Source: Clostridia bacterium | Lineage (GTDB): Bacteria > Bacillota > Clostridia > RGIG7378 | NCBI GenBank assembly: GCA_017559445.1 | Contig: JAFYSJ010000002.1 | Location: forward strand, 36,087 to 100,086 | DNA length: 64,000 bases | Direction: 5' to 3' | Shown here: in pieces, positions 22,283 through 64,000 of the stretch | How the letters are laid out: every line of letters begins with the position of its first letter | How positions within the stretch are numbered: position 1 is the first letter of the stretch | Notes under the pieces: generated by a model | Seen by the model: only the letters and a program-made list of their open reading frames with translations | Database searches by the model: none | Told to the model about the DNA's origin: nothing | Made by a program: the position numbers and the translations under genes

Positions 22283-22283
22283 A

Positions 22284-23663: not shown

Positions 23664-23758
23664 GTGGTCTCCACTTCTGTGCAATTACACATATCTTAAC
23701 TGGAATATTATATACTTCCTACAGCATAAAGTAAACGAAGTAACGTGGGAGACACCCC

Positions 23759-28319: not shown

Positions 28320-28336
28320 AATCTCTTCTCCTTTCC

Positions 28337-29818: not shown

Positions 29819-29838
29819 AATTTCACCTCTCCTACTGT

Positions 29839-32418: not shown

Positions 32419-32450
32419 AATTTCTTTCCTTTCTCAAAAAACCGCTTGTA

Positions 32451-34829
32451 TTATCTAAATGAAAGTTCACGATAGATAACGTATACGAAGCCCCATACCT
32501 GCTGCAAGATACTGAAGAACAGTACGCCGATGAAGATAATAATTACGGCTGCAAGCAAGATTACGAGAGTTACCAACATTGTCTTAGCAAATGAGTACTG
32601 GTGAGTAATCATTGTACCAACAACAATCAGCAAACCTGCCCAAACCAATCCGAAGATTGCGAGGAATGAGTGGATAGCACCTTCCTCAAGTGTTACACAG
32701 TAGCTGAGCAATACATTTGGAATGTAGAGCACTGGGATTGGCAACAATGCGTAGCAGGATGCCATAAAGATCTGCTTCATGTTTCCTTCGCCGTCCAACA
32801 AAGTTGTTGTACACCAGTTAGCAATTACCCACAAAGCCAAAGGTGCAAGTACTGCCAAGAACTCAATCCAAATATTAATCTTAGTTACATCGTTCTTGTT
32901 AAATGTGAATGATGTAAGCTGCTTCTGAAGAATCAAGGAGAAGATTGTAAGGGCAACGATGCCAATTGCAATCCAGATGTTTCCTCTGTTTTCCATCTTA
33001 AGTTCATAGAATCCCTTAACTGGGTTAAGCATATTCCTAAATGCAAATTTGATCTTCTCGCTTAAGCACTGTGGATCCTTAGCGGGCTTACCCTCTGGAC
33101 CATACTTCTTAAGAATCTGCTTCTTGCGAATTGCCTTGAATACTGCAATAGCAATTACAAGTACGAGAGCACATGTCATGAATGGACCGAATGCGTCATC
33201 AATCAACTCACTTCTTCTCTGCTTCCAAGCATTGGAGTAGTTTGTCTTCTTGTCGCCCAGCTTGAAGTACTTCATAGCTGTGTCGTAGTTCTTGTTCATG
33301 TACTCAACTCGGCCTACACCGATGTAAGCAAGCTGGAAGTTTGCGTTGTGGTAATCAATAATCTCCTGCCACAACTTTGCTGCATCATCCCACTTACCTT
33401 CATCCTGAAGTGCAAGAGCCTGGAGGATGTATCCGCCGTACTCAGTAATCTGGAACAAGGATACATAACCAGTTGTCTGGTCAAGTACCATCATGTCTGT
33501 ACCAAGGTACTCAATGGATACTGGCTTCTTGAATGTACCAGCTCTGATACCCAAGCCGCCGAAAATATAGAGGAGGTTACCATCCTGGTCGTATGTGAAA
33601 ACACGTCCTCTTGTGGAGTCCAATACGGAGTATACACCGTTGTTGGAACCATTGTTCAAAAGTGCTACGTCAACAATTCTGGATACACCAGCCTGCTCTG
33701 TTGCGTAGTAGTCAACCTGAACGTCTCCACCAGGAGCGAACCATGATGTTCTATAAAGAACGTCATTACCCAATGGGTTAAGTCTCTTTACAGAAGCATA
33801 ACGGTCGTCGTCTGTACCTGATGTAATATGTGCCTGGAACTCATACTGAGATACAGAAGAAGATGTTACGTAGATGAAGGACTTATCATCAATAGCAACG
33901 GAACTGTACTCAGAAGGAGTGAATGTAGCCTGTCTAGCTCTCTGCTCTCTGGTCATGAACCATCTCTTAATAACCTGGAAAATGGAAACACGAACCTTAG
34001 CTCTGCCGAAGAATGCTGTGAAGTTACCATCAGCATCAAACTTAAGCAAACCAGAAGTTACGTTCTTAGCAGCTACATAAAGTCTACCACCATCATCAAC
34101 TACCAAGGAGATTGGATAGTAAACATAGCCTGCTTCGAAGAGGTCGGACTCTGGAGCACCCAAAAGTCTTAAAACATCGTACTCCTTAGTCTCTTCGTTT
34201 AATCTGAAATGTACGATTCTAGAGTTGTTTGTATCACAAACATAGAATGTACCATCATTATCTACGAACATACCCTGAGGCTCACAGAACTGATACTGCT
34301 TACCCTCAAATGTATAGCCTGTAATTTCTCCAACAAGTGTCCAAGCATCTGGGTTCTCAGTCTTGTAAGAGAAAATCAAAAGACGACCCTTAGGAGTTGT
34401 ATCTACAACATCCTCTGTTGAGTCTGTTGTAACATCTGTTGTTACGTCTGTTGTTGCATCAGTTGTAACGTCTGTTGTTACATCACCTGTCTCATCAACA
34501 GTAGCAACACCCTCATCTGTTGTTACATCAGTTGTTGTATCACCTGTTACAGGAGCAATCCACTTAGAATCCAAGTAGTAGATCAAGTTGTTTGCTTCGT
34601 CACAAATAATAGCAACTGGATAAACAACAGGAGAATCTACGCCTTCAATCTTAGATACATCGATAACGGATGATACCTCGTATGCTGGTGGAGCGTAGAG
34701 AACATTCTTTGTAGAACTATATGTATAGTTAGAGAATGCTGCTGTTTCAGCAAAAGCTGGATAACAGCTAGATACCAACATAACAACAAGGAGAATTAAT
34801 GTTGAAATTTTAATTAATGCTTTCTTCAT
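32451..34829 (-). CDS. Fusion protein: signal peptide, a (T-D-V-T)n linker, an NHL-like beta-propeller, and a C-terminal Yip1-like multi-TM domain
   Basis: 792 aa, starting at MKKALIKIST with RBS aggagg. NHL-like blades (YVCDTNNSRIVHF, LYVAAKNVTSGLLKFDADGN). The C-terminal roughly 230 aa has 5 or more TM segments, Yip1-like. Low-complexity TTDVTTDATTDVTTDVTTD stretch. Confidence 0.5.
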   Translation of the reverse strand: MKKALIKISTLILLVVMLVSSCYPAFAETAAFSNYTYSSTKNVLYAPPAYEVSSVIDVSKIEGVDSPVVYPVAIICDEANNLIYYLDSKWIAPVTGDTTTDVTTDEGVATVDETGDVTTDVTTDATTDVTTDVTTDSTEDVVDTTPKGRLLIFSYKTENPDAWTLVGEITGYTFEGKQYQFCEPQGMFVDNDGTFYVCDTNNSRIVHFRLNEETKEYDVLRLLGAPESDLFEAGYVYYPISLVVDDGGRLYVAAKNVTSGLLKFDADGNFTAFFGRAKVRVSIFQVIKRWFMTREQRARQATFTPSEYSSVAIDDKSFIYVTSSSVSQYEFQAHITSGTDDDRYASVKRLNPLGNDVLYRTSWFAPGGDVQVDYYATEQAGVSRIVDVALLNNGSNNGVYSVLDSTRGRVFTYDQDGNLLYIFGGLGIRAGTFKKPVSIEYLGTDMMVLDQTTGYVSLFQITEYGGYILQALALQDEGKWDDAAKLWQEIIDYHNANFQLAYIGVGRVEYMNKNYDTAMKYFKLGDKKTNYSNAWKQRRSELIDDAFGPFMTCALVLVIAIAVFKAIRKKQILKKYGPEGKPAKDPQCLSEKIKFAFRNMLNPVKGFYELKMENRGNIWIAIGIVALTIFSLILQKQLTSFTFNKNDVTKINIWIEFLAVLAPLALWVIANWCTTTLLDGEGNMKQIFMASCYALLPIPVLYIPNVLLSYCVTLEEGAIHSFLAIFGLVWAGLLIVVGTMITHQYSFAKTMLVTLVILLAAVIIIFIGVLFFSILQQVWGFVYVIYRELSFR

Positions 34830-34839
34830 TTTGTCCTCC

Positions 34840-35751
34840 TTACTTAATACCTGAAGATGCCATTGTCTCAACAACGTTGGACTCTGTCAGCATGAACATT
34901 ACGATAGGAACGATCATGATGAATACGGCTACAGCAGAACCTGCACCCTGTCTAGCTACACCACCAGCCAAAATCTGGTTAAGAGCATAAGGCAAAGTCT
35001 TGAACTGCTCACTGAATACGTATACACCACCAGTTGTGTTCCAGAGAGACTGGAAGGAGAAGATAATCAATGTGAGCCAAGCTGGCTTAACGTTGGGCAT
35101 CGCAATGCTCCAGTAAACTCTGAACTCGTTTGCACCGTCGATACGAGCGGATTCGCAAAGAGCTGTTGGAAGTCCTTCCATGAACTGCTTCATAAGGAAG
35201 AGACCCATTGTGCTGGCAAATGCTGGAACTACAAGAGCAAGGTATGTATCCAACCATCCCAAACCAGAAAGAATCAAGTAGTTAGGAATGTATGTAACAG
35301 TTGCTGGGAACATCAAAGCCCAAATAACAGCTGTGAACAAGAAGTTCTTGCCAGGGAACTCATGCTTAGCCAATGCGAAAGCTGCCATTGAAGCCAAGAA
35401 CAAGTGTCCAATTGTACCGCATGCTGTAATGAATACGGTATTGAAAATGTATCTTGAGAATGGAACCCAAGACTCAGACATGATAATGAACAAGTCACTA
35501 AAGTTGTCCAATGTAGGGTTACGAGCAAAGAATCTCGGAGGGAATGCGAACAGCTCATCCATAGGCTTAACGGAGTTACTGATTGCATATACGAAGGGCA
35601 AAAGCATGAAGATACCTACGCCGATAAGCATTGCCATAATTGCTACGTCGCCGCCAACGGATCTGTTAGGCTTTCTTCTGCGGATAAACTTGCCTCCGAT
35701 CTTTGTTACTTTTTCTTCTTTAATTTTAGGTTCTTTAGCTTTTCTTGCCAT
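34840..35751 (-). CDS. Carbohydrate ABC transporter permease (MalG-like)
   Basis: EAA-like motif ESARIDGANEFRVYWSIAMP. 303 aa. Confidence 0.8.
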   Translation of the reverse strand: MARKAKEPKIKEEKVTKIGGKFIRRRKPNRSVGGDVAIMAMLIGVGIFMLLPFVYAISNSVKPMDELFAFPPRFFARNPTLDNFSDLFIIMSESWVPFSRYIFNTVFITACGTIGHLFLASMAAFALAKHEFPGKNFLFTAVIWALMFPATVTYIPNYLILSGLGWLDTYLALVVPAFASTMGLFLMKQFMEGLPTALCESARIDGANEFRVYWSIAMPNVKPAWLTLIIFSFQSLWNTTGGVYVFSEQFKTLPYALNQILAGGVARQGAGSAVAVFIMIVPIVMFMLTESNVVETMASSGIK

Positions 35752-35752
35752 A

Positions 35753-36700
35753 TCAAGTACCTACTTTCTGGAGAAGATTTTGAATCAGTCTGTTAAGACC
35801 GAGACAAGCGCCAAACAACAGAACGGCGATTGCAGATGCGTAGCCCATTTCGAATCTAACATCACCATAGTCCTGAAGGTGGTTAACAATTGTGTGTACC
35901 GCATAGTCTGTGCTGGGGAATCCACACATAGCTGTCATGATGTCTGCTGCACCGAATGTGGATGTAATAGACATAACAGCTGCGAACAACAACTGAGGCT
36001 TCATTGAAGGAAGTGTGATATACCACAACTCCTGCCATCTGTTGCTGATACCGTCAACATATCCAGCCTCGTAAAGCTCCTTATCGATACCCTGCAAACC
36101 AGCTACGTGAGACAAGAAGCCAGCGCCCAAGGAACTCCAAAGAGCAACAACGATACATACAAACATCATAGTCTTAGTATCTGTTGTCCACTGAACGGCC
36201 TTGTTGATAATACCCCAGTTCATAAGAACACCGTTAATCCAACCGTAAGAGTCACCAGAGAACATGATGCTCCATACCATGTAAACCTGACCTGAAATTG
36301 TAGGTGCATAGAATACAAGGATCATGATAGCTCTTACCTTAGGAGGAAGTTCGTTAATGAACCATGCAAATACGAATGCTGCCAAATAGCCCAAGGGGCC
36401 AGTAATAATAGCGAAAATAAATGTATTCTGAATAGCGAGGATGAATACATCGTCATGCAGGAAAAGGTTGAGGAAGTTAGTCCAACCTATAAACTGCGGT
36501 GCCTCCAAGATATTATAGTAAGTAAAGCTATAATATACGGAGATAATAACAGGTACGATTGTGAACATTACGAAGAGAATGTAGTAAGGCATCAAGAACA
36601 AATAGGATGCCTTGCTCTCCTTAATGCGACCCCAGAGAGTCCATTTCTTCTCGTAATCTTTGAGTTCACGTCTTTTCTTTGTAGCAACTGCTGTACTCAT
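35753..36700 (-). CDS. Carbohydrate ABC transporter permease (MalF/UgpA-like)
   Basis: EAA-like motif ELYEAGYVDGISNRWQELWYITLP. 315 aa. Confidence 0.8.
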   Translation of the reverse strand: MSTAVATKKRRELKDYEKKWTLWGRIKESKASYLFLMPYYILFVMFTIVPVIISVYYSFTYYNILEAPQFIGWTNFLNLFLHDDVFILAIQNTFIFAIITGPLGYLAAFVFAWFINELPPKVRAIMILVFYAPTISGQVYMVWSIMFSGDSYGWINGVLMNWGIINKAVQWTTDTKTMMFVCIVVALWSSLGAGFLSHVAGLQGIDKELYEAGYVDGISNRWQELWYITLPSMKPQLLFAAVMSITSTFGAADIMTAMCGFPSTDYAVHTIVNHLQDYGDVRFEMGYASAIAVLLFGACLGLNRLIQNLLQKVGT

Positions 36701-36725
36701 TGTTTACTCCTTTCGAAATGTCTCT

Positions 36726-39700
36726 CTAGTTTCCGTTCTTACCAGCTGCAATATCATCAGCAGTTGGAAGTCCGAACTCAATACGCTTATTTGTAATTTC
36801 GTCATTGATTGTACGCAAGTACTCAATCAATGTTTCACGAGGGTCAACCTTGTTATATACGCACTTTCTGAATGCGTTAGAAAGGTGACGGCTTGTGAAG
36901 TAGCTACCAGGCAACTGTGGAATACCCTGTGCCCAATCCCACTGCTCAAGAATCATTGCGTGATCCTTAGTTGTCCAGGAGATCTGGTCAAATGCCTCAA
37001 GGTTTGCTGTTGCATATCTTGCAGCAGAACCCATAACGGACTCAAGGTTCTTACCGAACTTAACCTGAGTATCTGCAGATGTCCACCACTTCATGAACTC
37101 CCAAGATGCATCAGGATCCTCTGTAGCAGCAAGCATCATACATGCATTACCTGCAGAAGCAACGCTTCTGTCGATATATGTGTTACCGTTCTCGTCTACG
37201 CGCTCAACGCCAGGAACGAGGGACCAGTTCCACTTACCTCTGATTTCGGGAGCGAATACAGACAATGTGTTGTACAAGCTGTAGTCGGAAATACCAATTG
37301 GCATCTCACCGATTCTGAAACGGTTAAGGAAGTCATAAGTTACTTCGCAACCGTAGTCTGTATAGAACAAGCAAAGAAGCTTAAATGCCTCGATAGCCTC
37401 ATCGCTATCCATAGCTGTCTGTGTACCATCATCTGTATAAAGCTGTCCGCCATGCTGATACAAGAACATGGAGTAAATAGACAATGTAGTAGCTACGTCA
37501 GACATGGAAGCAAGACCGAATGCCAAGTTGTGCTCAGCCAAGTCAGGAAGGATGTTAATAACATCTGTCCATGTGTTAGGAACCTCAATGTTAAGTTCGT
37601 CCAAAACGTCTGTTCTGTAGAACAACATTGGGAATGTCTCTGTCTCAGGCAATCCGTAAACACCAACGTGTCCATTTGCGCCCTCAAACTTAAGAGCCTC
37701 AAGAGCACTGTCGTTAAATCTCTTAGCGATTTCCTCATAATCATCGAACTGAGTCAAATCGTAAGCTGCGCTACGGATAGCATAGTTAACAGGTTCTGTG
37801 CACCATACCTGAACAACAACGTCAGGACCGATACCAGCAACTACAGCAGGAAGAAGGTTACCACCTGTAACCAACTGAAGGTTAACGTAGATGGGGTGAC
37901 CAGATGCCTCTGTGTTAGGAACAAATGTATCGTCGATCAAAGCCTTAAGGATGTTGGACTGGTCACGACCAGTTGTGATCCAAACTCTAACGCTAGAAGA
38001 ATTACCATCCTCCTCGTAAACGTTACCGATAGAGCTGTAATCGTTGAAGAAGGAGTTAATAAATGCGCTAAACTCGTGAGCAATGCTCTGCCACCATCTA
38101 TCGTGTGCACGAGGAAGCTCAGCAATCTGATCCTCAGATGTTACATAGAAGCAATCCATCTCCAATGGAGTAGATGCCATGTTAATCATCCATGTAGACA
38201 AAGAACCGATGTTTGTCTTGAGCTGATCCAAAGCTTTTGGAATATTCTCAGGCTTTGCAACCAACTGTCTAAGCTGCTTAGAAAGAGTCTGAAGTGTACC
38301 TACCTTATCACCCTTTTCACCATCTGTAAGGATAAGGAGGTCTTCAATCATCTTATCAAGTTCGTTTGCTGTATTCTCGAAGATGAGGATAACGCCAGGA
38401 AGCTTCTTATCAAGCTGATAGTCAGCATATGTATCAGGAGTTGTACCTGTAATCATCAAAATCTTACGATAGCAAACGTTAAGCAAGTTAACGAGCTCGT
38501 TAGCCTTAGTGATCAATGTTGTCATGTCACCAATAGAAGCCTCGAGTCTGATTGTATGTGTACCCTTTGTCAAATAGAAAGTATATGGATTACCTGCATC
38601 GTCGCCGATTGTCATGTTAACCCACTTATTTTCGTACTCAAACTGAAGATTCTCGCACTCTGCAAATGGTACGGAACCATCAATTGTAAGGATACGTGTA
38701 GAATAGTTACCTCTTGCGATATTCTGTCTGTACTTAAGAGTCAAGCAGTAAAGGCCATCCTCTGGTACTTCAATAACGTACTCAATCCACTGACCAGATG
38801 TATTCCAAGTCTCACCACCAATTGTGTTGTATCTAATCTTGGAAACGCTGTAAGGTGTAACGTTAGCAGAAGATCTGTTGCTCTGAGCAATCAAAGTTGT
38901 GGAGGATGTGCGGTTTGTAAGCTCAGCCTCATACTTCTTGAAATAACCATCAACAACGTTCTTGTTTGTCAACTGACTAAGATATGTCTCGTATGTAGGT
39001 GCAGATACTCTATTTGCAATAGTAATCTGACCAATAACAACGGGCTCCTTAGTAGCCTCAAATGTAATTGTGTTCTCGCCTGCCTCAAGGTAGAAGTAAT
39101 ATGGCTCTACATAATAACCGTTAGGGTCAGTAATGTATGCGCCATTCCAAATTGGATCTTCAACCAGTCCAGGACGAATGTCATTGTCTCTGTTATCTAC
39201 TGCAAATCCTGTAACGGGATTCTTGTTAGTTGCAGTAACTTCCTTATTCTTCCATGTGCGCACGAACAACACTGTACCTGCATCAAAGAAAGGCAACTCG
39301 CCGTTGATCAAGAACTTACGCTCTGCATCAGATCCCTTGCCCTCTGTGGGAGAATATTCTACGAATACCTGGTAAAGTCCAGATGTCTGAACAGTGAACT
39401 TGTATGTAACACTGGATACCTCGTCTGTCTTGACTGCAGATCCGCCCTTATAACCGTTGTAATTATCAACAACGGAGAAACCATAAGAGTTCTCTGTATC
39501 CAAGTCAGCAGGTGTTACCTTAATAACATCTGTAGGCTTAACTGTAGACTTAACATGGCTAATGTAGTATGCATAAGAATTCATATCGATGTACGCAGGG
39601 TCATTCAATATGCTCTCAATAGTAATACCTTCGCCTGTAAAGTCGTCAGAGCCTACATCTCCAGTGGAATCAACTTCACCATTCGCTGAATTTCCTGCAT

Positions 39701-39791
39701 CTGTGTCTGCTGCAAATGAAACTGCTACACCTGCAACACAAACAATTGTCAATGCCAAGAAAACAGCAATGAATTTGGTCCATTTTGACAT
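36726..39791 (-). CDS. Giant secreted protein (1021 aa): N-terminal unknown domains of about 560 aa fused to a C-terminal domain resembling a family-1 carbohydrate solute-binding protein
   Basis: Signal peptide MSKWTKFIAVFLALTIVCVAGVAVSFA. The C-terminal half (VRVWITTGRDQSNILKALIDDTF...WNWSLVPG...) resembles sugar solute-binding proteins. It is the first gene of the locus, with RBS gaggaagaga. Confidence 0.6.
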   Translation of the reverse strand: MSKWTKFIAVFLALTIVCVAGVAVSFAADTDAGNSANGEVDSTGDVGSDDFTGEGITIESILNDPAYIDMNSYAYYISHVKSTVKPTDVIKVTPADLDTENSYGFSVVDNYNGYKGGSAVKTDEVSSVTYKFTVQTSGLYQVFVEYSPTEGKGSDAERKFLINGELPFFDAGTVLFVRTWKNKEVTATNKNPVTGFAVDNRDNDIRPGLVEDPIWNGAYITDPNGYYVEPYYFYLEAGENTITFEATKEPVVIGQITIANRVSAPTYETYLSQLTNKNVVDGYFKKYEAELTNRTSSTTLIAQSNRSSANVTPYSVSKIRYNTIGGETWNTSGQWIEYVIEVPEDGLYCLTLKYRQNIARGNYSTRILTIDGSVPFAECENLQFEYENKWVNMTIGDDAGNPYTFYLTKGTHTIRLEASIGDMTTLITKANELVNLLNVCYRKILMITGTTPDTYADYQLDKKLPGVILIFENTANELDKMIEDLLILTDGEKGDKVGTLQTLSKQLRQLVAKPENIPKALDQLKTNIGSLSTWMINMASTPLEMDCFYVTSEDQIAELPRAHDRWWQSIAHEFSAFINSFFNDYSSIGNVYEEDGNSSSVRVWITTGRDQSNILKALIDDTFVPNTEASGHPIYVNLQLVTGGNLLPAVVAGIGPDVVVQVWCTEPVNYAIRSAAYDLTQFDDYEEIAKRFNDSALEALKFEGANGHVGVYGLPETETFPMLFYRTDVLDELNIEVPNTWTDVINILPDLAEHNLAFGLASMSDVATTLSIYSMFLYQHGGQLYTDDGTQTAMDSDEAIEAFKLLCLFYTDYGCEVTYDFLNRFRIGEMPIGISDYSLYNTLSVFAPEIRGKWNWSLVPGVERVDENGNTYIDRSVASAGNACMMLAATEDPDASWEFMKWWTSADTQVKFGKNLESVMGSAARYATANLEAFDQISWTTKDHAMILEQWDWAQGIPQLPGSYFTSRHLSNAFRKCVYNKVDPRETLIEYLRTINDEITNKRIEFGLPTADDIAAGKNGN

Positions 39792-54602: not shown

Positions 54603-54630
54603 AAAAGACGGGCCCTTTTAAGGCCCGTCT
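54603..54630 (-). terminator. Terminator after surface-protein paralogue A
   Basis: Hairpin gacgggccttaaaagggcccgtc followed by a U-rich tail on the minus strand. Confidence 0.45.
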
Positions 54631-54653
54631 CACTGCTAAATTTTAACTATGTA

Positions 54654-55517
54654 TTACTTTTTCTTCTTAGCAACAACAATTACAACAACTGCTGCTACGA
54701 GAACTACGCCAACAACTGCGCCTGTGATAATCCAGATTTTGCCAGCGCCCAAATCGTCGGCCTTATCATCTGCCTTGTCGTCTGTCTTATCGCCAGTTGC
54801 ATCTGTCTTGTCATCTGCACCTGTATCTGGTGTTACATCACCTGCAGATGCATTAGGATTTGTAGACTCCTCTGCCTTAATAGCCATTGTCCAATCCATC
54901 TGATATGCCTTAGCTGCTGTGAACTCTGTGCCATCATCAAACTTAAATGTAGCTGTATTTGTCTCACCAATTGCTACTGCGTTTGTCTCGTTGAAAGAAC
55001 AAACCTTGTCACCAACCTTAAGATTGTCTACGTCAAACTTAAGAACTGTGCCTACCTCATATGCTGCTGCATCACCATAGTAGAATCTTACGAAGAAGCC
55101 CTCTTCCAAATCGGATGCTGCTGTGAATGTAACATTTGTCCATCCATCATAACCTGCTGTAATAATGATTGAATCCTCTGCTGCGAACTCTTCATCAATG
55201 CACTCAATATAGTAAGCTGTAACATTGTTGTTATCATCATACTCTTCTGGAATAACGTTGAATGCCTTAGATGCAGCCTGGAAGAAACGAATGGAAAGGC
55301 CGTTATACATCAGATCATCTGTCAAGTAGGGTCTAAAGTCAAAGCTAACTGTCTGACCAGTAGTAACAGGAGTAGCGAAGTCTACCTGCAATGCGCACAT
55401 GTTCTCCTCGTCAACAGTACCGGAGATCTCCATGTAGGAGTTAGTGCCTGCAAATGCAACTGGGGCTACAGACAATGCAAGTGCCAAAATTGTAAGAATA
55501 GCAATTAATTTTTTCAT
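54654..55517 (-). CDS. Surface-protein paralogue A (287 aa): signal peptide, K/D-rich linker, and anchor module type 1 (KIWIITGAVVGV...KKKK)
   Basis: MKKLIAILTILALALSVAPVAFA signal peptide. The YYIECI core is shared with the paralogues. C-terminus DLGAGKIWIITGAVVGVVLVAAVVVIVVAKKKK. Confidence 0.7.
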   Translation of the reverse strand: MKKLIAILTILALALSVAPVAFAGTNSYMEISGTVDEENMCALQVDFATPVTTGQTVSFDFRPYLTDDLMYNGLSIRFFQAASKAFNVIPEEYDDNNNVTAYYIECIDEEFAAEDSIIITAGYDGWTNVTFTAASDLEEGFFVRFYYGDAAAYEVGTVLKFDVDNLKVGDKVCSFNETNAVAIGETNTATFKFDDGTEFTAAKAYQMDWTMAIKAEESTNPNASAGDVTPDTGADDKTDATGDKTDDKADDKADDLGAGKIWIITGAVVGVVLVAAVVVIVVAKKKK

Positions 55518-55625
55518 GTTCCACCTCTAGTGTGTTTTATTTTTATACTAAAGATTTTACCATGGCATAATTTGTAGTCAATGGTAGAAATACCTTTGTA
55601 TTCACAATTTGTTCACTTTCTACTC

Positions 55626-55657
55626 AAAAAAAGAAGACCTAATTTCTTAGGTCTTCT
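55626..55657 (-). terminator. Terminator after paralogue B
   Basis: Hairpin agaagacctaagaaattaggtcttct plus TTTTTTT on the minus strand. Confidence 0.55.
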
Positions 55658-55679
55658 TGAGTGACTATCTAACTTTAAA

Positions 55680-56321
55680 TTAGAACTCTCTCTTCTTGAG
55701 AACTACTGCACCACCGATAACTGCTGCAACTGCAACAACTGCGATAGATACAACGCCTGTCTCCTCAACTGGTGCATCCTCTGTCTCAACTGGTGTCTCC
55801 TCAACAACAACTGGCTCCTCCATAGCTGTAGCTGTAAGAGCCTCGCCAGAGTTGTATGCGTTAAGAGCAACCTCAACACCGTTAACCTTAACGCCAGCAA
55901 TCTGAGCACCTGTCATTGTGCCACCAGCAACGTTACCGCAGTCAACAGAAAGCTCGTAACCTGTGGAATCAGACATTGCTACGCACTCAATGTAGTACCA
56001 ACCATCAACCTCAGCAAGAGCGTTGTCTGTGATGTGCTTACCAGAGTAAACTTCCTTACCTGTATCGTTGCCCTCTGCATCAAGGTAGTGAGCCTTAGCA
56101 CCATCTCTAGCATACATATCAGCATTCTCAATTGTAGCAGGCTTTACCCAGAATGTGATCTTATCACCAGTCTTAACCTCACCTGCAATCTTAGCGGACC
56201 ATCTAGAACCATCACCGTTCTTGTCTTCCATATCATAGCTGTTGATAGAAGCTGCGAATGCAACGGACATGCAAGAAACTACCATAACAACTGCAATAAG
56301 AGCTGCCAAAATCTTCTTCAT
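55680..56321 (-). CDS. Surface-protein paralogue B (213 aa): signal peptide, GWYYIECV core, anchor module type 2 (PVEETGVVSIAVVAVAAVIGGAVVLKKREF)
   Basis: N-terminus MKKILAALIAVVMVVSCMSVAFA. C-terminus ...ETEDAPVEETGVVSIAVVAVAAVIGGAVVLKKREF. Confidence 0.7.
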   Translation of the reverse strand: MKKILAALIAVVMVVSCMSVAFAASINSYDMEDKNGDGSRWSAKIAGEVKTGDKITFWVKPATIENADMYARDGAKAHYLDAEGNDTGKEVYSGKHITDNALAEVDGWYYIECVAMSDSTGYELSVDCGNVAGGTMTGAQIAGVKVNGVEVALNAYNSGEALTATAMEEPVVVEETPVETEDAPVEETGVVSIAVVAVAAVIGGAVVLKKREF

Positions 56322-56406
56322 ATTTGTTTACCTCCAAAATATTTTGAATAGAAATTAAATTTCTCCCTAGATTTTAACAATGTAAATATATGGTGTCAAT
56401 GGTCCT

Positions 56407-56439
56407 TTTGCACAATTTACTTCTCTGTTTTTGTGCAAA
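56407..56439. promoter_or_regulatory. Palindromic operator TTTGCACAA-N15-TTGTGCAAA upstream of the -35 box of paralogue B
   Basis: ttttgcacaatttacttctctgtttttgtgcaaaa. On the coding strand it is followed by TTGACA-N16-TGTTAAAAT. Confidence 0.5.
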
Positions 56440-56468
56440 AAGCAAGATTTCACTTGAAATCTTGCTTT
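56436..56468 (-). terminator. Terminator after paralogue C, overlapping the paralogue-B operator half-site
   Basis: Hairpin aagcaagatttcaagtgaaatcttgctt plus T-run. Confidence 0.5.
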
Positions 56469-56483
56469 AAAAAAATTGCTTAA

Positions 56484-57233
56484 TTATGCCTTTTTCCTCT
56501 TAAGAATAATCGCAATAACTGCTGCAATAAGGGCCACACCTACCACAGCACCTGTGATAATCCACACTTTGTCTACGGACAATCCATCGTCTACTTTATT
56601 TTCATTGTTATCGTTCTTATCTGTTTCCGTATCATCTGCGATATCACCAGAAGTGTCATCTGTTGGTTCTAAATCTGAATATGGGCTTGTCATCTTAATT
56701 TTCTCTGCTTCAAGAACAAGATTGGATCCCTCAAACAAATCTGCATCAAGAGCCAACTCTACGCCGTTTATTGACATGGATGCAAAATAAATAACGGAAC
56801 CGTCTGCAGGTCGTACCTCCTTACCTGTCTCTGTGCCGTCTTCATAGAAATAGAAGAATCCCATTGTTATACCCTCTGACTCAACGGTAACATCAAAGGT
56901 AATCTTGTACCAATCATTACCGAGGAACTCTACCCAAGTCTCATCAAAAGTTTTTTCATCTGTCCACTTCTCACCAGCACCATAAACTCTAGCTGTAAGA
57001 TTTCTAACAGTAGCTTCTGTTCCTGTTTCCTGTTCCAAAATATTTGGAAGATTAATCAGAATTTCTACCTTAGCCCCTTCTACAAATTCACCCTCTGCAT
57101 AATGGAACTGAATTCTAGACTGTTCACCATCTGTAACTGTAAGCTTACAAACCTCTATTTCCTGTGCAGAAGCAAATGATGACATAGACAGCACCATTGC
57201 CATTACTGTAAGGATAGCTAATACCTTTTTCAT
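56484..57233 (-). CDS. Surface-protein paralogue C (249 aa): signal peptide, WYKITFDV core, anchor module type 1 (KVWIITGAVVGV...KRKKA)
   Basis: Start set at MKKVLAILTV with RBS aggagg. C-terminus SVDKVWIITGAVVGVALIAAVIAIILKRKKA. Confidence 0.7.
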   Translation of the reverse strand: MKKVLAILTVMAMVLSMSSFASAQEIEVCKLTVTDGEQSRIQFHYAEGEFVEGAKVEILINLPNILEQETGTEATVRNLTARVYGAGEKWTDEKTFDETWVEFLGNDWYKITFDVTVESEGITMGFFYFYEDGTETGKEVRPADGSVIYFASMSINGVELALDADLFEGSNLVLEAEKIKMTSPYSDLEPTDDTSGDIADDTETDKNDNNENKVDDGLSVDKVWIITGAVVGVALIAAVIAIILKRKKA

Positions 57234-57287
57234 GTTTTCCTCCTGAAGTTTTTGCGACATATCTATCGTCTTATATATATTACCTAA

Positions 57288-57318
57288 AATAAAAGAAGGC
57301 TCCAAAACGGAGCCTTCT
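57288..57318 (-). terminator. Terminator after paralogue D
   Basis: Hairpin gaaggctccgttttggagccttc plus TTTTATTTT. Confidence 0.55.
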
Positions 57319-57339
57319 TCAATATGTATCTAACTTAGA

Positions 57340-58050
57340 TTAGAACTCTCTCTTCTTGAGAACTACTGCACCGCCGATAACTGCTGCTACTGCAACAACT
57401 GCGATAGATACAACGCCTGTCTCCTCAACTGGAGCGTCCTCTGTCTCTGCAGGTGTCTCTGTTGCTGCGGATCTAGGATCTGCCATAGTTGTCTTAGCTG
57501 CCAATGTAGTTGCTGCAGAACCATCGAATCCGTAAACTCTAGCTGGATCTACTGCAACGCCGTTAACTGTAATGCCTGCTACCAAGCACTCTGCTACCTG
57601 AGCGTCAGGATATGTGGAGCTCTCGCCCTCATCATATGTTACAACTGCCAAGAAGTTGTCTCCGTCCTTCTGGATCTCTGCCTCGATGTAGAACCAACCA
57701 TCATCGTTCTTCCAGAGATATGCATCCTCGCTATCGAACCAAATGTCATAGCAAAGCTTATCTGTGATGTTGCCCTCAGCATCAAGTCTCTTACCCTTTG
57801 TAGAACCGCCATCAACGTGTCTTACATACATCTTAAGCTGACCAACGCCATCAATACCTGTGCCAGGAACTGCCTTTACGTAGAAACCTACGATATCGCC
57901 CTGCTTCATATCCTTAATTGCAACGCCTTCTCTGCGTCCGCCCTGATAGGACTCCATCTCATAGCAATCAATCTCATCTGCTGCAAATGCAACGGAAGAC
58001 ATAGAGAGAGCCATAGCGAGAACCAAAAGAACTGCTAAAATCTTCTTCAT
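57340..58050 (-). CDS. Surface-protein paralogue D (236 aa): signal peptide, GWFYIEAE core, anchor module type 2
   Basis: MKKILAVLLVLAMALSMSSVAFA. C-terminus PAETEDAPVEETGVVSIAVVAVAAVIGGAVVLKKREF. The 3' roughly 110 nt are nearly identical to those of B and E. Confidence 0.7.
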   Translation of the reverse strand: MKKILAVLLVLAMALSMSSVAFAADEIDCYEMESYQGGRREGVAIKDMKQGDIVGFYVKAVPGTGIDGVGQLKMYVRHVDGGSTKGKRLDAEGNITDKLCYDIWFDSEDAYLWKNDDGWFYIEAEIQKDGDNFLAVVTYDEGESSTYPDAQVAECLVAGITVNGVAVDPARVYGFDGSAATTLAAKTTMADPRSAATETPAETEDAPVEETGVVSIAVVAVAAVIGGAVVLKKREF

Positions 58051-58132
58051 TTTTGTTACCTCCATATATTAGAAAAATTACTTTCTCTTTAGTTGCATTT
58101 TACCAACGCCCACATGCATAGTCAATCATCCT

Positions 58133-58165
58133 TTTGCACAATTTTTACAATACAATTTGTGCAAA
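58133..58165. promoter_or_regulatory. Palindromic operator TTTGCACAA-N15-TTGTGCAAA upstream of the -35 box of paralogue D
   Basis: tttgcacaatttttacaatacaatttgtgcaaa, immediately 5' (on the coding strand) of TTGACT-N17-TGGTAAAAT. Confidence 0.5.
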
Positions 58166-58190
58166 GCAACAAAACCTAAGTTTCCGCATC

Positions 58191-58217
58191 AAAAAAGAGA
58201 GCCTGTAATAGGCTCTC
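58191..58217 (-). terminator. Terminator after paralogue E
   Basis: Hairpin gagagcctattacaggctctc plus TTTTTT. Confidence 0.55.
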
Positions 58218-58247
58218 CCGTGTTTGCAATATTGATCTAATTTAAAA

Positions 58248-58931
58248 TTAGAACTCTCTCTTCTTAAGAACTACTGCACCACCGATAACTGCTGCTACTG
58301 CAACAACTGCGATGGAAACAACACCTGTCTCCTCAACTGGTGCATCCTCTGTAGCTGCATCCTCTGTCTCAGCAGGTGTCTCTTCTGTTGCGCCAGGAAG
58401 AGTTACCTTAACTGCCTCAGCTGCAAGAGTAAGACCCTTACCTGTGAAGTTAGCTGCATCAAGAGTAACGTCTGTGCCGTTAACCTTAATACCTGCAACT
58501 GTCATAACAGAACCATCTGCAGGCTGAGCCTCTGTGTTGTCCTCTGTGTAGTAGAAGAATGCAACCATCATACCCTCACATGCTGCTGTTGCCTTGAATG
58601 TAAGCTCATACCAGCCATCGCCAAGGTCCTTTGCCCATGTCTCATCAATTGCCTGTCCGTTGATGAACTTGTCACCACCGTCATAAACTCTAGCTGTAAG
58701 GCTCTTAACCTTAGCTGTAGCGCCAGTAGCTACGTCTGTGATGTCAGGAAGCTGTACTGTAAGTACTACTTCATCATTAGCTGCAAGTGTAACGCCTGCA
58801 ATGTTGTACTGGAATCTTGTCTGTGTTGTAGCTGTAGCTGTAAGCTTAACTGCGTCAACGTCTGCGAATGCAACTGCAGATACAGAAAGAACCATAACAA
58901 CTGCAATAAGAGCTGCTAAAATCTTCTTCAT
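58248..58931 (-). CDS. Surface-protein paralogue E (227 aa): signal peptide, GWYELTFK core, anchor module type 2
   Basis: MKKILAALIAVVMVLSVSAVAFA. C-terminus ATEDAPVEETGVVSIAVVAVAAVIGGAVVLKKREF. Confidence 0.7.
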   Translation of the reverse strand: MKKILAALIAVVMVLSVSAVAFADVDAVKLTATATTQTRFQYNIAGVTLAANDEVVLTVQLPDITDVATGATAKVKSLTARVYDGGDKFINGQAIDETWAKDLGDGWYELTFKATAACEGMMVAFFYYTEDNTEAQPADGSVMTVAGIKVNGTDVTLDAANFTGKGLTLAAEAVKVTLPGATEETPAETEDAATEDAPVEETGVVSIAVVAVAAVIGGAVVLKKREF

Positions 58932-59031
58932 TTTTGTTACCTCTCAAAATATTAATTAATATTAGGGTATTCCCCTAATGCGAATTTTACATCATGAATC
59001 CAATGAAATCAACATTTAATTTTCTTGCACG

Positions 59032-59060
59032 AAAAAGAGGCAGAGCCTAAGCCCTGCCTC
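59032..59060 (-). terminator. Terminator after paralogue F
   Basis: Hairpin gaggcagggcttaggctctgcctc plus TTTTT. Confidence 0.55.
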
Positions 59061-59088
59061 AAATAACCTAAAACTTTATCGTTCTAAA

Positions 59089-61335
59089 TTAGAACTCCTT
59101 CTTCTTAAGAACAACTGCGCCGCCCATAATTGCTACCATAGCAACTACTGCGATAGAGATAGCACCTGTCTCCTCAGGTGTAACATCCTCTGTAATCTCA
59201 GCTGTAACAACCTCAACTACAAGGCCCTCTACTACGATAACTGTTGTGCCTGCCTCATATGCCTCACCGTTTACTGTAACGGATACAAGCTCATAACCCT
59301 CAGCAACCTCAACCTCAACTACAACCTCTGTGCCTTCGTCAATATCGCCCTCAAGAACATTACCCTCAGCATCCTTAAGAACAACTGTAGCATTCTCAGC
59401 TGTTACGTCAGGAGCGAAGATTCTAGTTGTAGCAACCATAACCTCAATACCTTCGTCTGCAATGATGCTCTTGCCAGACTCGAACTCTTCGCCGTTTACC
59501 AAGATGCCTGTAACAACGAAGCCCTCTAAAGCCTCAACCTCAATTGTGTACTCATACTTCTCTGTAAGAGCTTCCTCACCTGGGTTAACTACGTTGCCGT
59601 CAATATCCTTTACAACAACAGTAGCGCCTGCGCCTGTTACGATAAGCTGAAGAGCATCTCTTGTTGGAAGCTCAACACCTGTTGCATCAAGGAGATCTGG
59701 TTCAACAACATTGCTGTTGTTGTCTGTAACAACAGTTGTCTCGTCAAGAGCAACACCATTCACTGTAATGTTGGCAACTGCTGTTGCACCGATAGCACCA
59801 TCTGTTACATTGCCTCCATCTACAGAGAACTCAAGCTTAGAGACATCCTCTTGGAGAACGCACTCAATGTAGTACCAACCTGTCTCTTCTCCTTCGTAAA
59901 GCAAAGGAAGTGCATAGTCTACAATGTGCTTACCACTATAAACTTCATCATCTGTTCCAAGATACAATGCCTTAGCACTCTTACGAACATACATATCTGT
60001 CTTGTCAACCTCTGCTGAATCTCCAATATATACAAGGAATGTAACAACATCACCTGTCTTGAACTCATACTCTACAAAGATAGTATTTCTGCTGGAACTC
60101 TTTGCTGGCATCTCGTAGCCCAACCACCAAATTGTCTCTGTGTCCTGTGCCTGCCAATAGAAAACTGCAGAAATCCAATTAATCTTTGTATACTTCTCAA
60201 CAATTACAAGTTCAGAACCGTCGTCCCATGTATATGTAACTGTGTTCTCCTGAGAATTATCAACTACCTGATCATCATTGAAGGAAGCTGTCTTATCGCC
60301 GATCTTAAGATCGTCAATAATAATAATGCTTGCATCTGGATCAGAAACAACAAATCTAAAGAAAATACCTGTCTGCTCTGCAAGGTTCTTATATGTAACC
60401 TTATAGAAACCATCTCCCAAATCCTCAATAACAAGGTCAGAAGCAAGAGAAGCAGTCTTAATAGAGCCACTCAATCCTTCTGCATTAGCAGTAACTGCAA
60501 TAAGCTTGTTATTTGCGCTTGCATCTCTTACAGAAATCTCAGAGAAGGAGAATTCACTTTCAGAGTCATTGTAAACAACAAAAGAAACCTCTGCGTCTGC
60601 AGCAACGGACTCTTTAACAACGAACTGAATGTACTTATCATTCTCGCCCTCTGCCATACCGTTAGCCATAAAGCCTACCAAATAGTTAACTTCTAACTCT
60701 GCTCCACCCTCAACTACAAGAGATGCTGCCCAATCAAAGCCATTAACACTTCTCTCGATTGTGAACTCTGTACCATCATCATACTTAAGGGATGCGGCGT
60801 TCTTGTCTGCGAACTCTACAACATTTGCCTCGCCAAAAGAGCAAACTTTATCACCAACTGTAAGATTATCTACATCCAATGCAGCATAACCAAATGCAAT
60901 GTGAAGACCATCAGCAAGGTCTACTGTGATCTGGAAGGATACTCTGTACCAACCATCCTCAAGTGCTGTGAAAGATACTGTATCCATCGCAACAGTACCA
61001 TTATTCTTTGCCTCACCAACCTGCTCATTTACACTCCATGTGCCAGGAGTAGAAGAGCTAGGCTTTGCATAGAACAACTTTCTAGCGCCATTGTGTGTAC
61101 GAACGTCAAAAATACCACCATCATTAGTTGCTTCACCAATAGGTCTAAAATCAAATGTAACTACATCTCCTGCTGCAATTGACACAACCATGTTTAACTG
61201 GTTCTCGGGTCTGCTTGGGTAATCTTCCAAAGCTTCAACATGCATGTAAGATGTTGCCTCATCAGCAAATGCCATAGTTGGAACCAATGTCATAACCATT
61301 GCAACTGCAAGAAGAATAGCTAAAAACTTCTTCAT
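59089..61335 (-). CDS. Surface-protein paralogue F (748 aa): signal peptide, several beta-rich repeat domains, GWYYIECV core, anchor module type 2 variant (TPEETGAISIAVVAMVAIMGGAVVLKKKEF)
   Basis: Start set at MKKFLAILLAV with RBS ggagga. Carries internal Ig-like repeats (VVTGILVNGEEFESG / LVSVTVNGEAYEAG). Confidence 0.7.
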   Translation of the reverse strand: MKKFLAILLAVAMVMTLVPTMAFADEATSYMHVEALEDYPSRPENQLNMVVSIAAGDVVTFDFRPIGEATNDGGIFDVRTHNGARKLFYAKPSSSTPGTWSVNEQVGEAKNNGTVAMDTVSFTALEDGWYRVSFQITVDLADGLHIAFGYAALDVDNLTVGDKVCSFGEANVVEFADKNAASLKYDDGTEFTIERSVNGFDWAASLVVEGGAELEVNYLVGFMANGMAEGENDKYIQFVVKESVAADAEVSFVVYNDSESEFSFSEISVRDASANNKLIAVTANAEGLSGSIKTASLASDLVIEDLGDGFYKVTYKNLAEQTGIFFRFVVSDPDASIIIIDDLKIGDKTASFNDDQVVDNSQENTVTYTWDDGSELVIVEKYTKINWISAVFYWQAQDTETIWWLGYEMPAKSSSRNTIFVEYEFKTGDVVTFLVYIGDSAEVDKTDMYVRKSAKALYLGTDDEVYSGKHIVDYALPLLYEGEETGWYYIECVLQEDVSKLEFSVDGGNVTDGAIGATAVANITVNGVALDETTVVTDNNSNVVEPDLLDATGVELPTRDALQLIVTGAGATVVVKDIDGNVVNPGEEALTEKYEYTIEVEALEGFVVTGILVNGEEFESGKSIIADEGIEVMVATTRIFAPDVTAENATVVLKDAEGNVLEGDIDEGTEVVVEVEVAEGYELVSVTVNGEAYEAGTTVIVVEGLVVEVVTAEITEDVTPEETGAISIAVVAMVAIMGGAVVLKKKEF

Positions 61336-61389
61336 ATTTGTTTCCTCCATTTATTTATTGGATTAATTTCCATTTAAAAGAATATCACT

Positions 61390-61415: not shown

Positions 61416-61602
61416 CAAGCTTTTTGTCACTTTCTACAATCTGCAATCTAATAATTTATGCAAAACAACAACTCTTCTTATCTGTTTCACAATATAACCA
61501 ATTTTTTGTCATTATTTTTGTACACAATTTAGTCATATTTCTGTGCCATTGATCACATTTTTTGGTATAATTCCTTTATATACCTTATATATGGAGGTAC
61601 AT

Positions 61603-62418
61603 ATGAATTTTTGGGCTAGGTTAATAGAAATTCTTCAAACAGAAGCAACATGTCCCACCAGTTACGGTTGGTTCCACCTTGTTTGGGTAGCGATTATTAT
61701 TGCCTCAACCGTTTCCTTGTGTTACTTCTACCGCAACGCAGATGACAAACAATATCGTAAGATTATGCTTATTATGTGGGTGGCAATGGTTGCCTTCGAG
61801 ACATTTAAGCAGCTCATGTATATATTCTCCGTTTCCGATGGTGTCGTGGAAGCAGACTATAGTTGGTACGTGTTCCCATTCCAGCTTTGTGGTACACCTC
61901 TTTTTGTTCTTCCTTTTATCATTTGGGGTAAGGATAGCTCATTTAGAGACGCCATCATGGCATTCATTTGTATATTCTCTTTCTTTGGTGGATTAGTAAC
62001 ATATATCTACCCCGAGGATGTTTTCATCGCAGAGGTTGGCATTAGCCTTCAGTCCATGTTCCATCACGGATCTCAGATTGTTATGGGCATTTTCACCATC
62101 ACACATTTGAGGAAAAGATATGACCTTTCCCTGTACAAAAAGGGCGCAATTGCATTTGCTGCACTTTGTGGAGTGGCGCTTATTCTCGATGTAGTTGGCT
62201 ATAAACTTTTAAGAGCAGCTGGCATGGATGATACATTCAACATGTTCTTTATTAGTCCTTACTTTGAGTGCTCTCTTCCAGTTCTTAACAAGATCGATCA
62301 GGCTTTGCCATACGTACCTTTCTTGGCACTCTACATTTTTGGATTCTTGCTCATCGGCTTTGTAATGTTCTGGATTCAGAAGGGCTGCATCAAATTGGCA
62401 ACAAGAAAGCATTCTTAA
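61603..62418 (+). CDS. Polytopic membrane protein of unknown function, paralogue-like to the protein at 17397-18176
   Basis: 271 aa. RBS ggaggt before MNFWARL. Motif FPFQLCG and 7-8 TM segments. Confidence 0.45.
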   Translation: MNFWARLIEILQTEATCPTSYGWFHLVWVAIIIASTVSLCYFYRNADDKQYRKIMLIMWVAMVAFETFKQLMYIFSVSDGVVEADYSWYVFPFQLCGTPLFVLPFIIWGKDSSFRDAIMAFICIFSFFGGLVTYIYPEDVFIAEVGISLQSMFHHGSQIVMGIFTITHLRKRYDLSLYKKGAIAFAALCGVALILDVVGYKLLRAAGMDDTFNMFFISPYFECSLPVLNKIDQALPYVPFLALYIFGFLLIGFVMFWIQKGCIKLATRKHS

Positions 62419-63734: not shown

Positions 63735-64000
63735 ATGGACAATAAAGAGTTAATCAGCAACATATTAGAAGCATCAACAAATGGAGTAATTACTACCAAA
63801 GATATTAATTCCGCAGGATTACATCGCAATGTATTGCAAAAACTTGTTATTACAGGAGAGCTTACGCGCTTTGGAAGAGGATTATATATTCGCAACAATG
63901 TTTGGGAAGATGATTTTTACATGCTCCAATCCAAATATAGTCGCGGTGTTTTTTCTCACGAAACTGCCCTATATTTATGGGGATATACTGATCGAACTCC
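63735..64000 (+). CDS. AbiEi-like antitoxin (N-terminal AbiEi_4 domain). The 3' end is truncated by the window end.
   Basis: MDNKELISNILEASTNGVITTKDINSAGLHRNVLQKLVITGELTRFGRGLYIR matches the AbiEi N-terminal HTH-like pattern (..vitskda..lGisrsaLsrLvksGeLervsrGvY). RBS aaggggg. Confidence 0.55.
   Translation, partial: MDNKELISNILEASTNGVITTKDINSAGLHRNVLQKLVITGELTRFGRGLYIRNNVWEDDFYMLQSKYSRGVFSHETALYLWGYTDRT

Follow-up and report, generated by a model that had tools for sequence, protein, structure and literature searches.

The window analyzed here, a 64,000-nucleotide stretch of contig JAFYSJ010000002.1 (positions 36,087 to 100,086 of the forward strand; assembly GCA_017559445.1) from a Clostridia bacterium, contains a tandem array of six paralogous genes, A to F, which are lineage-specific, fast-evolving and separately transcribed and encode predicted surface binding proteins. 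Taken together, the evidence points, with a likelihood somewhat above even, to a variable array of surface binding modules carried on two interchangeable C-terminal anchors, one of which (type 2) is most likely a degenerate sortase signal. The six genes are as follows (window coordinates here and below).

Gene A, 54654-55517, minus strand: 287 amino acids; signal peptide, predicted A-type beta-sandwich ectodomain, D/K/T-rich stalk, type 1 anchor.
Gene B, 55680-56321, minus strand: 213 amino acids; signal peptide, predicted B/D-type beta-sandwich, acidic stalk, type 2 anchor.
Gene C, 56484-57233, minus strand: 249 amino acids; C/E-type ectodomain and type 1 anchor.
Gene D, 57340-58050, minus strand: 236 amino acids; B/D-type ectodomain and type 2 anchor.
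Gene E, 58248-58931, minus strand: 227 amino acids; C/E-type ectodomain and type 2 anchor.
Gene F, 59089-61335, minus strand: 748 amino acids; several modules and a type 2 anchor (TPEETG).

The common plan that a previous sequence-only reading of this DNA had proposed for the six minus-strand genes is borne out, with the core motifs and both types of C-terminal tails present as quoted. The N-termini of all six proteins read MKK[ILFV][IL]A and continue into a hydrophobic core and a putative A-x-A cleavage site; thus, each is predicted to possess the N-terminal Sec signal peptide that is characteristic of sortase substrates. A GGAGG-like ribosome-binding site precedes each of the six genes, and the starts of C, D and F, all at MKK ATG codons, agree with the gene calls in independent assemblies, in which gene A is likewise called. 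Pfam and NCBIfam scans of the six proteins reach no model threshold. At NCBI, gene D is named “acid shock protein”, a misannotation that seems to be due to the signal peptide (residues 1-26), which scores 22 bits against the Asr model NF033636 (cutoff 50); the other five proteins are annotated as “hypothetical”. The signal peptide of B contains a lipobox-like VVSC, but a lipoprotein assignment was rejected given that the relatives P0030 and P0092 have Ser or Val instead of this Cys and that an A-x-A site follows.

According to the BLASTP segment matches, protein F consists of an A-type module (residues 25-209), an A-like module (residues 298-391), a B-type module (residues 407-528), two immunoglobulin (Ig)-like domains (residues ~540-715) and the anchor. 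The Ig-like region, located between the binding modules and the anchor, contains two repeats of ~85 amino acids (...AEGYELVSVTVNGEAYEAG..., window 59191-59718) that resemble stalk domains of the InlB B-repeat kind, below every Pfam threshold. Three distantly related subtypes of ectodomains can be delineated by sequence comparison. The A ectodomain is similar to residues 1-209 of F (33% identity, E-value 4e-30) and also matches residues 298-391; B is related to D and to residues 407-528 of F (45% identity); and the ectodomains of C and E are 42% identical over 184 amino acids (E-value 3e-48; BLASTP in all cases). The B/D-type and C/E-type profiles are themselves related, with an hhalign probability of 81% (E-value 1.3e-5).

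The C-terminal anchors belong to two types.

Type 1 anchor of A, 54654-54743, minus strand: GKIWIITGAVVGVVLVAAVVVIVVAKKKK; 21.1 bits against NF041738 (cutoff 22).
Type 1 anchor of C, 56484-56573, minus strand: DKVWIITGAVVGVALIAAVIAIILKRKKA; 15.0 bits against NF041738.
Type 2 cassette and conversion tract of B, 55680-55795, minus strand: ETEDAPVEETG, a 19-residue hydrophobic segment, KKREF and the stop codon.
Type 2 cassette and conversion tract of D, 57340-57455, minus strand: 98% identity to B in the 87-nucleotide core.
Type 2 cassette and conversion tract of E, 58248-58355, minus strand: 94% identity to B and D in the 87-nucleotide core.
Diverged type 2 cassette of F, 59089-59175, minus strand: PEETG-AISIAVVAMVAIMGGAVVL-KKKEF; 80-82% identical to the tails of the small genes.

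The type 2 tail (B, D, E and F) follows the pattern [VTP]E[EDP]TG, 19 hydrophobic residues, KK[KR]EF, with the helix consensus VVS[IV]AVVAVAAV[IV]GGAVVL. The type 1 tails of A and C show 64% nucleotide identity.

The type of anchor cuts across the ectodomain subtypes, and therefore the anchors have been swapped. Type 1 is found on A and C, and type 2 on B, D, E and F, so that C and E share a common ectodomain but have different anchors; the same is true of A and the N-terminal part of F, and in one related genome (L004), an A-like ectodomain bears a type 2 tail. The module shuffling that had been suggested from the sequence thus holds, and cassettes have been exchanged both within and between genomes. 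The related arrays, L003 (GCA_054295925.1), L004 and L005/L006, occupy the same syntenic position, flanked by biotin-carrier, oxaloacetate-decarboxylase and FtsK genes on one side and by TMEM164-like and GH20 genes on the other; each contains a single large gene with multiple modules, along with four small genes. The gene content varies between the genomes, and the large proteins have differing sets of N-terminal modules. In L004, an open reading frame (ORF)-less group II intron (positions 15014-15495; Rfam RF02001, 90.9 bits, and RF00029, 42 bits) is located between two array genes; this intron is not present in the window. A search of 5.8 billion proteins identifies 6 relatives of F and 27 of E, and a profile search against 1.84 billion representative proteins yields 48 matches. 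The family is rare: it is represented in a small number of metagenome-assembled genomes (MAGs) from the ruminant gut, and in every case it lies in the same syntenic array. In its organization, the array resembles the streptococcal emm/mrp/enn genes for M-like proteins, which also are tandem paralogs with conserved signal-peptide and anchor ends, divergent exposed regions and recombination between copies; it differs in the predicted fold, a beta-sandwich rather than a coiled coil, in the exchange of two anchors and in the lack of a canonical LPXTG motif.

The 3' ends of the type 2 genes are subject to concerted evolution by gene conversion. Alignment of the genes at the stop codon shows that the last 120 nucleotides of the coding sequence are 94% identical between B and D, 85% between B and E, and 86% between D and E, and each of these is 73-76% identical to F. 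Upstream of about -105 to -120 nucleotides, the identity falls to ~30%, and it is lost a few bases beyond the stop codon (25-34% over the 100 nucleotides past the stop). The near-identity of the 3' ends of B, D and E next to differing ectodomains, as noted from the sequence alone (the 3'-end string quoted there is the reverse complement of the 3' end of B), is therefore borne out by the nucleotide comparison. The 5' ends, which encode the signal peptide (the first 30-70 nucleotides), are also unusually alike in B, D and E (71-84% over 69 nucleotides). Over the 87-nucleotide core of the small-gene type 2 tails, the mean identity is 97.4% for paralogs within a genome, compared to 91.8% for orthologs and 91.7% for non-orthologs between genomes; the difference within versus between genomes is reached by 2 of 10,000 permutations. 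Genome-specific states of the tail, including synonymous ones, are common to all paralogs of the given genome, and orthology, which is obvious in the ectodomains, has left no trace in the type 2 tail. Because paralogs within a genome are more alike than orthologs, the gene conversion that had been suspected is the explanation of this pattern.

However, conversion within genomes alone cannot account for the conservation of the type 2 tail between species. Among type 2 orthologs from different genomes, the tails are 94% identical at the protein level vs 65% for the ectodomains, and the same codon is used at 84% of the identical residues in the tails vs 68% in the ectodomains; for type 1, the respective values are 71% vs 67% and 67% vs 66%. 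The ortholog pairs share genomes, so that p-values overstate their independence, but the effect is large. For comparison, the housekeeping proteins of these genomes show 79-91% identity, and 50-64% of the codons are identical. Thus, the type 2 tail is under sequence-specific constraint, and type 1 behaves as a generic membrane anchor. The synonymous-site conservation of the type 2 tails (55680-55766, 57340-57426 and 58248-58334, along with the orthologs in L003, L004 and L005) exceeds that of both the ectodomains and the housekeeping genes. RNA structure was considered as the cause and rejected: the tail mRNA folds no better than shuffled sequences (z-scores from +0.06 to -1.15), and an Rfam scan of the window detects one tRNA and no other RNA. 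Codon preference or exchange between strains is a possible cause.

The sequence-only reading had treated both tails as TG-type sorting signals. For type 1, this does not hold. The conserved part of the type 1 tail is only [KT]VWII[TV]GAVVG, and in two genomes the orthologs read WIIVG, so that the “TG” is not a conserved motif; furthermore, the tail evolves no more slowly than the ectodomain. The closest model is NF041738, the GGIII-like C-terminal transmembrane (TM) region, in which the type 1 tails of A and of its ortholog P0070 align with model positions 1-26/28, a TM helix followed by a basic tail; the scores are 21.1 bits for A, 21.7 for P0070, 15.0 for C and 17.0 for the L003 tail, i.e., 15.0-21.7 bits, all under the cutoff of 22, the best of them only just. 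A literature search found nothing on the function of the GGIII region. The type 1 tail thus behaves like an ordinary single-pass membrane anchor, bordering on the GGIII-like model.

The type 2 tail shows several hallmarks of sortase signals, such as those described by TIGR01167 (LPXTG) and NF033846 (Ruminococcus NPXTG) and those recognized by SrtB of Clostridioides difficile. The proteins have a predicted signal peptide, and the tail follows a low-complexity stalk and consists of T-G, a short, 19-residue hydrophobic segment and a basic cluster at the extreme C-terminus, with the at least two basic residues after the hydrophobic segment that are expected of such signals. The T-G is invariant in all 42 type 2 tails. 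The three preceding residues are VEE in 21 tails, VEP in 7, TEE in 5, PEE in 2 and VED in 2; the remaining variants, PAK, PAR, TPK, TTK and TSK, occur in one tail each, all in a more distant sub-lineage. SrtB of C. difficile cuts a clostridial motif, (S/P)PXTG, between the T and the G (PMC4155245), and class E sortases have the motif LAXTG (PMC5148588). The TPKTG, PAKTG and PARTG of the distant relatives are close to both. Among the sorting-signal models, with E-values up to 10 considered, the type 2 tails match those for sortase signals only: the alignment with NF033846 begins at model position 4 (T-G), leaving N-P-x unmatched. The GVDTG sorting domain (NF058571, cutoff 29) is matched by type 1 tails of orthologs only (15.5-16.7 bits) and not by type 2. 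No exosortase, archaeosortase or rhombosortase signal (PEP-CTERM, PGF-CTERM, GlyGly-CTERM and others) is found at E-values up to 10, except for negligible Loki-CTERM scores of 7-10 bits for type 1. Judged from these similarities, type 2 has about even chances of being a degenerate sortase-type signal of the form [VTP]E[EDP]TG. The simplest history would be that of a sortase-type signal in which the pentapeptide drifted to x-E-x-T-G in this clade.

Several observations weigh against this interpretation. Glu occupies the second position of the pentapeptide in 37 of the 42 tails, and the pentapeptides found in the window, VEETG (B, D and E) and PEETG (F), are neither LPXTG nor one of its accepted variants, which agrees with the observation in the sequence-only reading that a canonical LPXTG is lacking. 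To our knowledge, no characterized sortase accepts Glu at this position, the known motifs having Pro or Ala. The hydrophobic segment and the basic tail of type 2 are better conserved than the pentapeptide, which is the opposite of the usual situation in sortase signals. No sorting-signal model is matched by type 2 above the cutoff: the scores are 15.5-20.5 bits against NF033846 (cutoff 23.5) and 12.9-13.3 bits against TIGR01167 (cutoff 15.9). The tail is, furthermore, confined to one protein family. None of the 1.84 billion representative proteins combines it with an unrelated protein, and a nucleotide scan for ExTG-19 residues-KK[KR]EF-stop in one genome per GTDB species identifies, besides one chance match, a single genome of 185,579, which contains four copies of the tail, all in the array; hence nothing points to a general sorting pathway relying on this tail. 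A looser DNA scan of metagenomes of the Joint Genome Institute (TG-x13-GG-x4-KK[KR]EF-stop) finds only one chance match, in a high-GC contig. Finally, neither a Sortase Pfam domain nor a TLxTC motif is detectable in the window or in the 10 kb on either side (~84 kb).

The same observations can be accommodated by a distinctly less probable but serious alternative, namely, that type 2 is an uncleaved single-pass anchor, in which the helix and KK[KR]EF are conserved for docking to a common membrane partner or to each other. Such docking would gather different binding modules in one membrane complex, and the T-G would be a feature of the helix start or of an interface. This possibility is compatible with the conservation of the entire 19-residue segment along with KK[KR]EF, while the charge of the pentapeptide varies from E-E to A-K, as well as with the slow evolution of the tail relative to the ectodomains (94% vs 65% identity), its restriction to one family, the lack of a sortase gene nearby and the sub-cutoff scores against the sortase-signal models. 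However, an uncleaved helix does not readily explain why T-G, located exactly where the hydrophobic segment begins, is absolutely invariant in two sub-lineages with entirely different residues upstream, or why the only sorting-signal models that the tail resembles are those of sortase signals; besides, the family already possesses an ordinary TM anchor, type 1, that is free of such constraint.

It is improbable, although conceivable, that type 2 is an undescribed sorting signal that is read through the membrane helix and tail by a dedicated non-classical enzyme, perhaps an intramembrane hydrolase or transferase, by a logic similar to that of PEP-CTERM/exosortase or GlyGly-CTERM/rhombosortase. 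Recognition of this kind would keep the helix and tail nearly invariant, synonymous sites included, while the ectodomains fall to 65% identity, and the array would constitute the substrates of a sorting system that is private to a single clade of uncultured Clostridia. Indeed, several copies per genome (four in the window) remain nearly invariant while the attached domains diverge, and no known model is matched above the threshold; the undescribed sorting class with a dedicated partner proposed in the sequence-only reading is a hypothesis that is neither contradicted nor supported. However, known sorting signals mark diverse proteins, whereas this tail is found on one family at one locus, and the identity within genomes is explained by gene conversion. 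The hypothetical dedicated sortase or exosortase-like partner has no counterpart within ~84 kb. A protein of the TMEM164/YwaF family, for which an intramembrane nucleophile/His dyad has been predicted (bioRxiv 10.1101/2022.07.06.498872), adjoins the array in L003 as well as in the window, but it is not specifically tied to the array: an ATP-binding cassette transporter gene intervenes in L004, a 561-residue ORF (for which no Pfam scan was made) takes its position in L006, and a second copy is encoded at 17397-18176 of the window. This neighbor was accordingly downgraded as a candidate partner. The gene beside F (61543-62418) is divergently transcribed and is 57-63% identical between genomes, compared to 90-99% for the neighboring GH20 gene.

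Although the window comes from a metagenome assembly and one cluster member (P0080) looks chimeric, the possibility that the near-identity of the 3' ends is an artifact of assembly or binning, due to collapsed or chimeric short-read repeats, is negligible, given that the six-gene array is present with identical gene calls on three contigs from different samples and also in an NCBI MAG, “Clostridia bacterium” with IKV30 locus tags, that three related genomes follow the same plan with genome-specific tail variants, and that a few synonymous differences distinguish the copies, which therefore are not collapsed. P0080, a member of the 90% identity cluster of gene A, combines the A ectodomain with an unrelated C-terminus that replaces the type 1 anchor, and it probably derives from a chimeric contig; this unrelated end is presumably the reason why the cluster includes short fragments named as histidine-biosynthesis (phosphoribosyl-ATP pyrophosphatase) proteins.

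The ectodomains are predicted to adopt a beta-sandwich, jelly-roll fold of the kind found in carbohydrate-binding modules (CBMs) and bacterial pre-peptidase C-terminal (PPC) domains. The AlphaFold2 models, generated from the family alignments, are beta-sandwiches with predicted local distance difference test (pLDDT) scores above 90 at residues 25-170 of B and 24-180 of E, with the stalk and tail disordered. The best structural matches of these models are weak and mostly to CBMs; a Foldseek search against the PDB yields no match below an E-value of 0.026, and the Pfam scores for PPC (18.9 bits, cutoff 25.9) and CBM53 (16.7 bits, cutoff 27.6) are below the gathering scores. As modeled, the modules of ~140-155 residues resemble the beta-sandwiches of CBM4/22/32/35, PPC, the collagen-binding domain of ColH and GOLD. 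In relatives, modules of this type are joined to enzymes: a B-like module precedes a GH18 catalytic domain in P0099 and occurs together with Big_2 and alkaline phosphatase in P0106, and in P0112 it is weakly linked by profile to PPC repeats. The array proteins differ from CBMs and PPC in that their modules stand alone on anchors, with no enzyme attached, reach no Pfam threshold and contain no assignable ligand-binding residues. Because B-like modules are found on enzymes as accessory modules are, it is a reasonable inference, by analogy, that the ectodomains bind ligands, probably glycans. The suggestion of a variable adhesin or carbohydrate-binding family made in the sequence-only reading is thus plausible, in view of the confident beta-sandwich models, the weak CBM matches and the GH18 fusion. 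A diversity-generating retroelement was considered as the source of the ectodomain variation and rejected: the variation covers whole modules rather than a C-terminal variable region, and no reverse transcriptase is detected by Pfam among the ORFs taken to be genuine genes (for five further genes, according to the precomputed Pfam calls in L001).

The following scheme can be envisaged for the array. Each protein would be exported by the Sec pathway, with the signal peptide cut after A-x-A, and would display one (A to E) or several (F) jelly-roll modules, similar in the models to CBMs and the PPC domain, on an acidic, disordered stalk, while either of the two C-terminal cassettes would hold it at the envelope. 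If type 2 is indeed a degenerate sortase signal, a sortase encoded elsewhere would cut it between T and G and link the protein to peptidoglycan, so that similar modules would be placed in two layers, the membrane (type 1) and the wall (type 2). The 5' ends and, above all, the type 2 3' ends, homogenized by gene conversion inside each genome, probably double as homology arms for the swapping of ectodomain cassettes and anchors.

The regulatory sites of the array, detected by a scan unless indicated otherwise, are the following.

Promoter-like site of A, 55554-55581, minus strand: TTGACT-16-TAAAAT with an upstream TG.
Promoter-like site of B, 56371-56399, minus strand: TTGACA-17-TAAAAT with an upstream TG.
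Promoter-like site of D, 58097-58125, minus strand: TTGACT-17-TAAAAT with an upstream TG.
Promoter-like site of E, weaker, 58984-59012, minus strand: TTGATT-17-TAAAAT.
Terminator-like hairpin after A, 54605-54631, minus strand.
Terminator-like hairpin after B, 55631-55658, minus strand.
AT-rich hairpin with a T run after C, 56436-56465, minus strand: read by eye, below the G+C criterion of the scan.
Terminator-like hairpin after D, 57292-57320, minus strand.
Terminator-like hairpin after E, 58195-58219, minus strand.
Terminator-like hairpin after F, 59037-59060, minus strand.
Operator-like inverted repeat, 56405-56439, minus strand: TTTGCACAAA-N13-AAATTGTGCAAAAG, directly upstream of the -35 element of B.
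Copy of this inverted repeat, 58131-58165, minus strand: upstream of the -35 element of D.

Of the six genes, four bear out the expectation of an individual sigma-A promoter (TTGAC[TA]-16/17-TGnTAAAAT for A, B and D, and the weaker site of E), whereas the scan finds no clear match for C or F. Individual terminators are likewise detected after all genes except C, which is followed only by the weaker AT-rich hairpin. The operator-like repeat, with the consensus TTTGCACAAA-N13-(A)ATTGTGCAAA(AG), lies a few bases 5' of the -35 element in B-type and D-type genes. It is also found before the B-like and D-like genes of L004 (14111-14143 and 15528-15560) and L005 (6282-6314), and weaker copies are present at 61453-61530 of the window. 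This element is kept in three genomes and resembles a site to which a dedicated transcription factor would bind.

Beyond the array, the window is an ordinary chromosomal segment, with genes for SpoIIR, MurT/GatD, MreB, RNase Y and FtsK, and SpoIID encoded just outside. The sample names and sources of the contigs indicate ruminant gastrointestinal metagenomes, and the host is an uncultured Clostridia bacterium of the ruminant gut that forms spores and has a single membrane, a cell type supported by the MurT/GatD, SpoIIR and SpoIID genes. The adjacent genes for a GatD-like amidotransferase and MurT (21518-23684) encode a pair that amidates lipid II, in keeping with a wall of the Gram-positive type. 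An AbiEi/AbiEii toxin-antitoxin pair (~63735-64000 and onward; L010 11239-12578), located between the GH20 and xanthine/uracil permease genes, is missing at the same position in L004 and therefore is a strain-specific insertion. A large transport cluster (27273-39791) includes four permease-domain genes, a 1021-residue protein with a solute-binding domain confined to the C-terminal third, an 859-residue DUF5696 protein and an 807-residue NHL/TPR/Yip1 protein.

The practical reach of these findings is small because the family is restricted to a few closely related MAGs. Nevertheless, surface-protein annotation in gut Clostridia that relies on motifs and hidden Markov models overlooks such proteins. 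Should a sortase process type 2, the range of accepted motifs would widen to include Glu at the second position. If it is not processed, constrained and unconstrained anchors on the same ectodomains in one genome would provide a natural comparison and a clean system for asking what purpose a conserved membrane helix serves. In either case, the locus is a compact case of concerted evolution combined with cassette shuffling in the predicted surface proteins of an uncultured organism from the rumen or gut.

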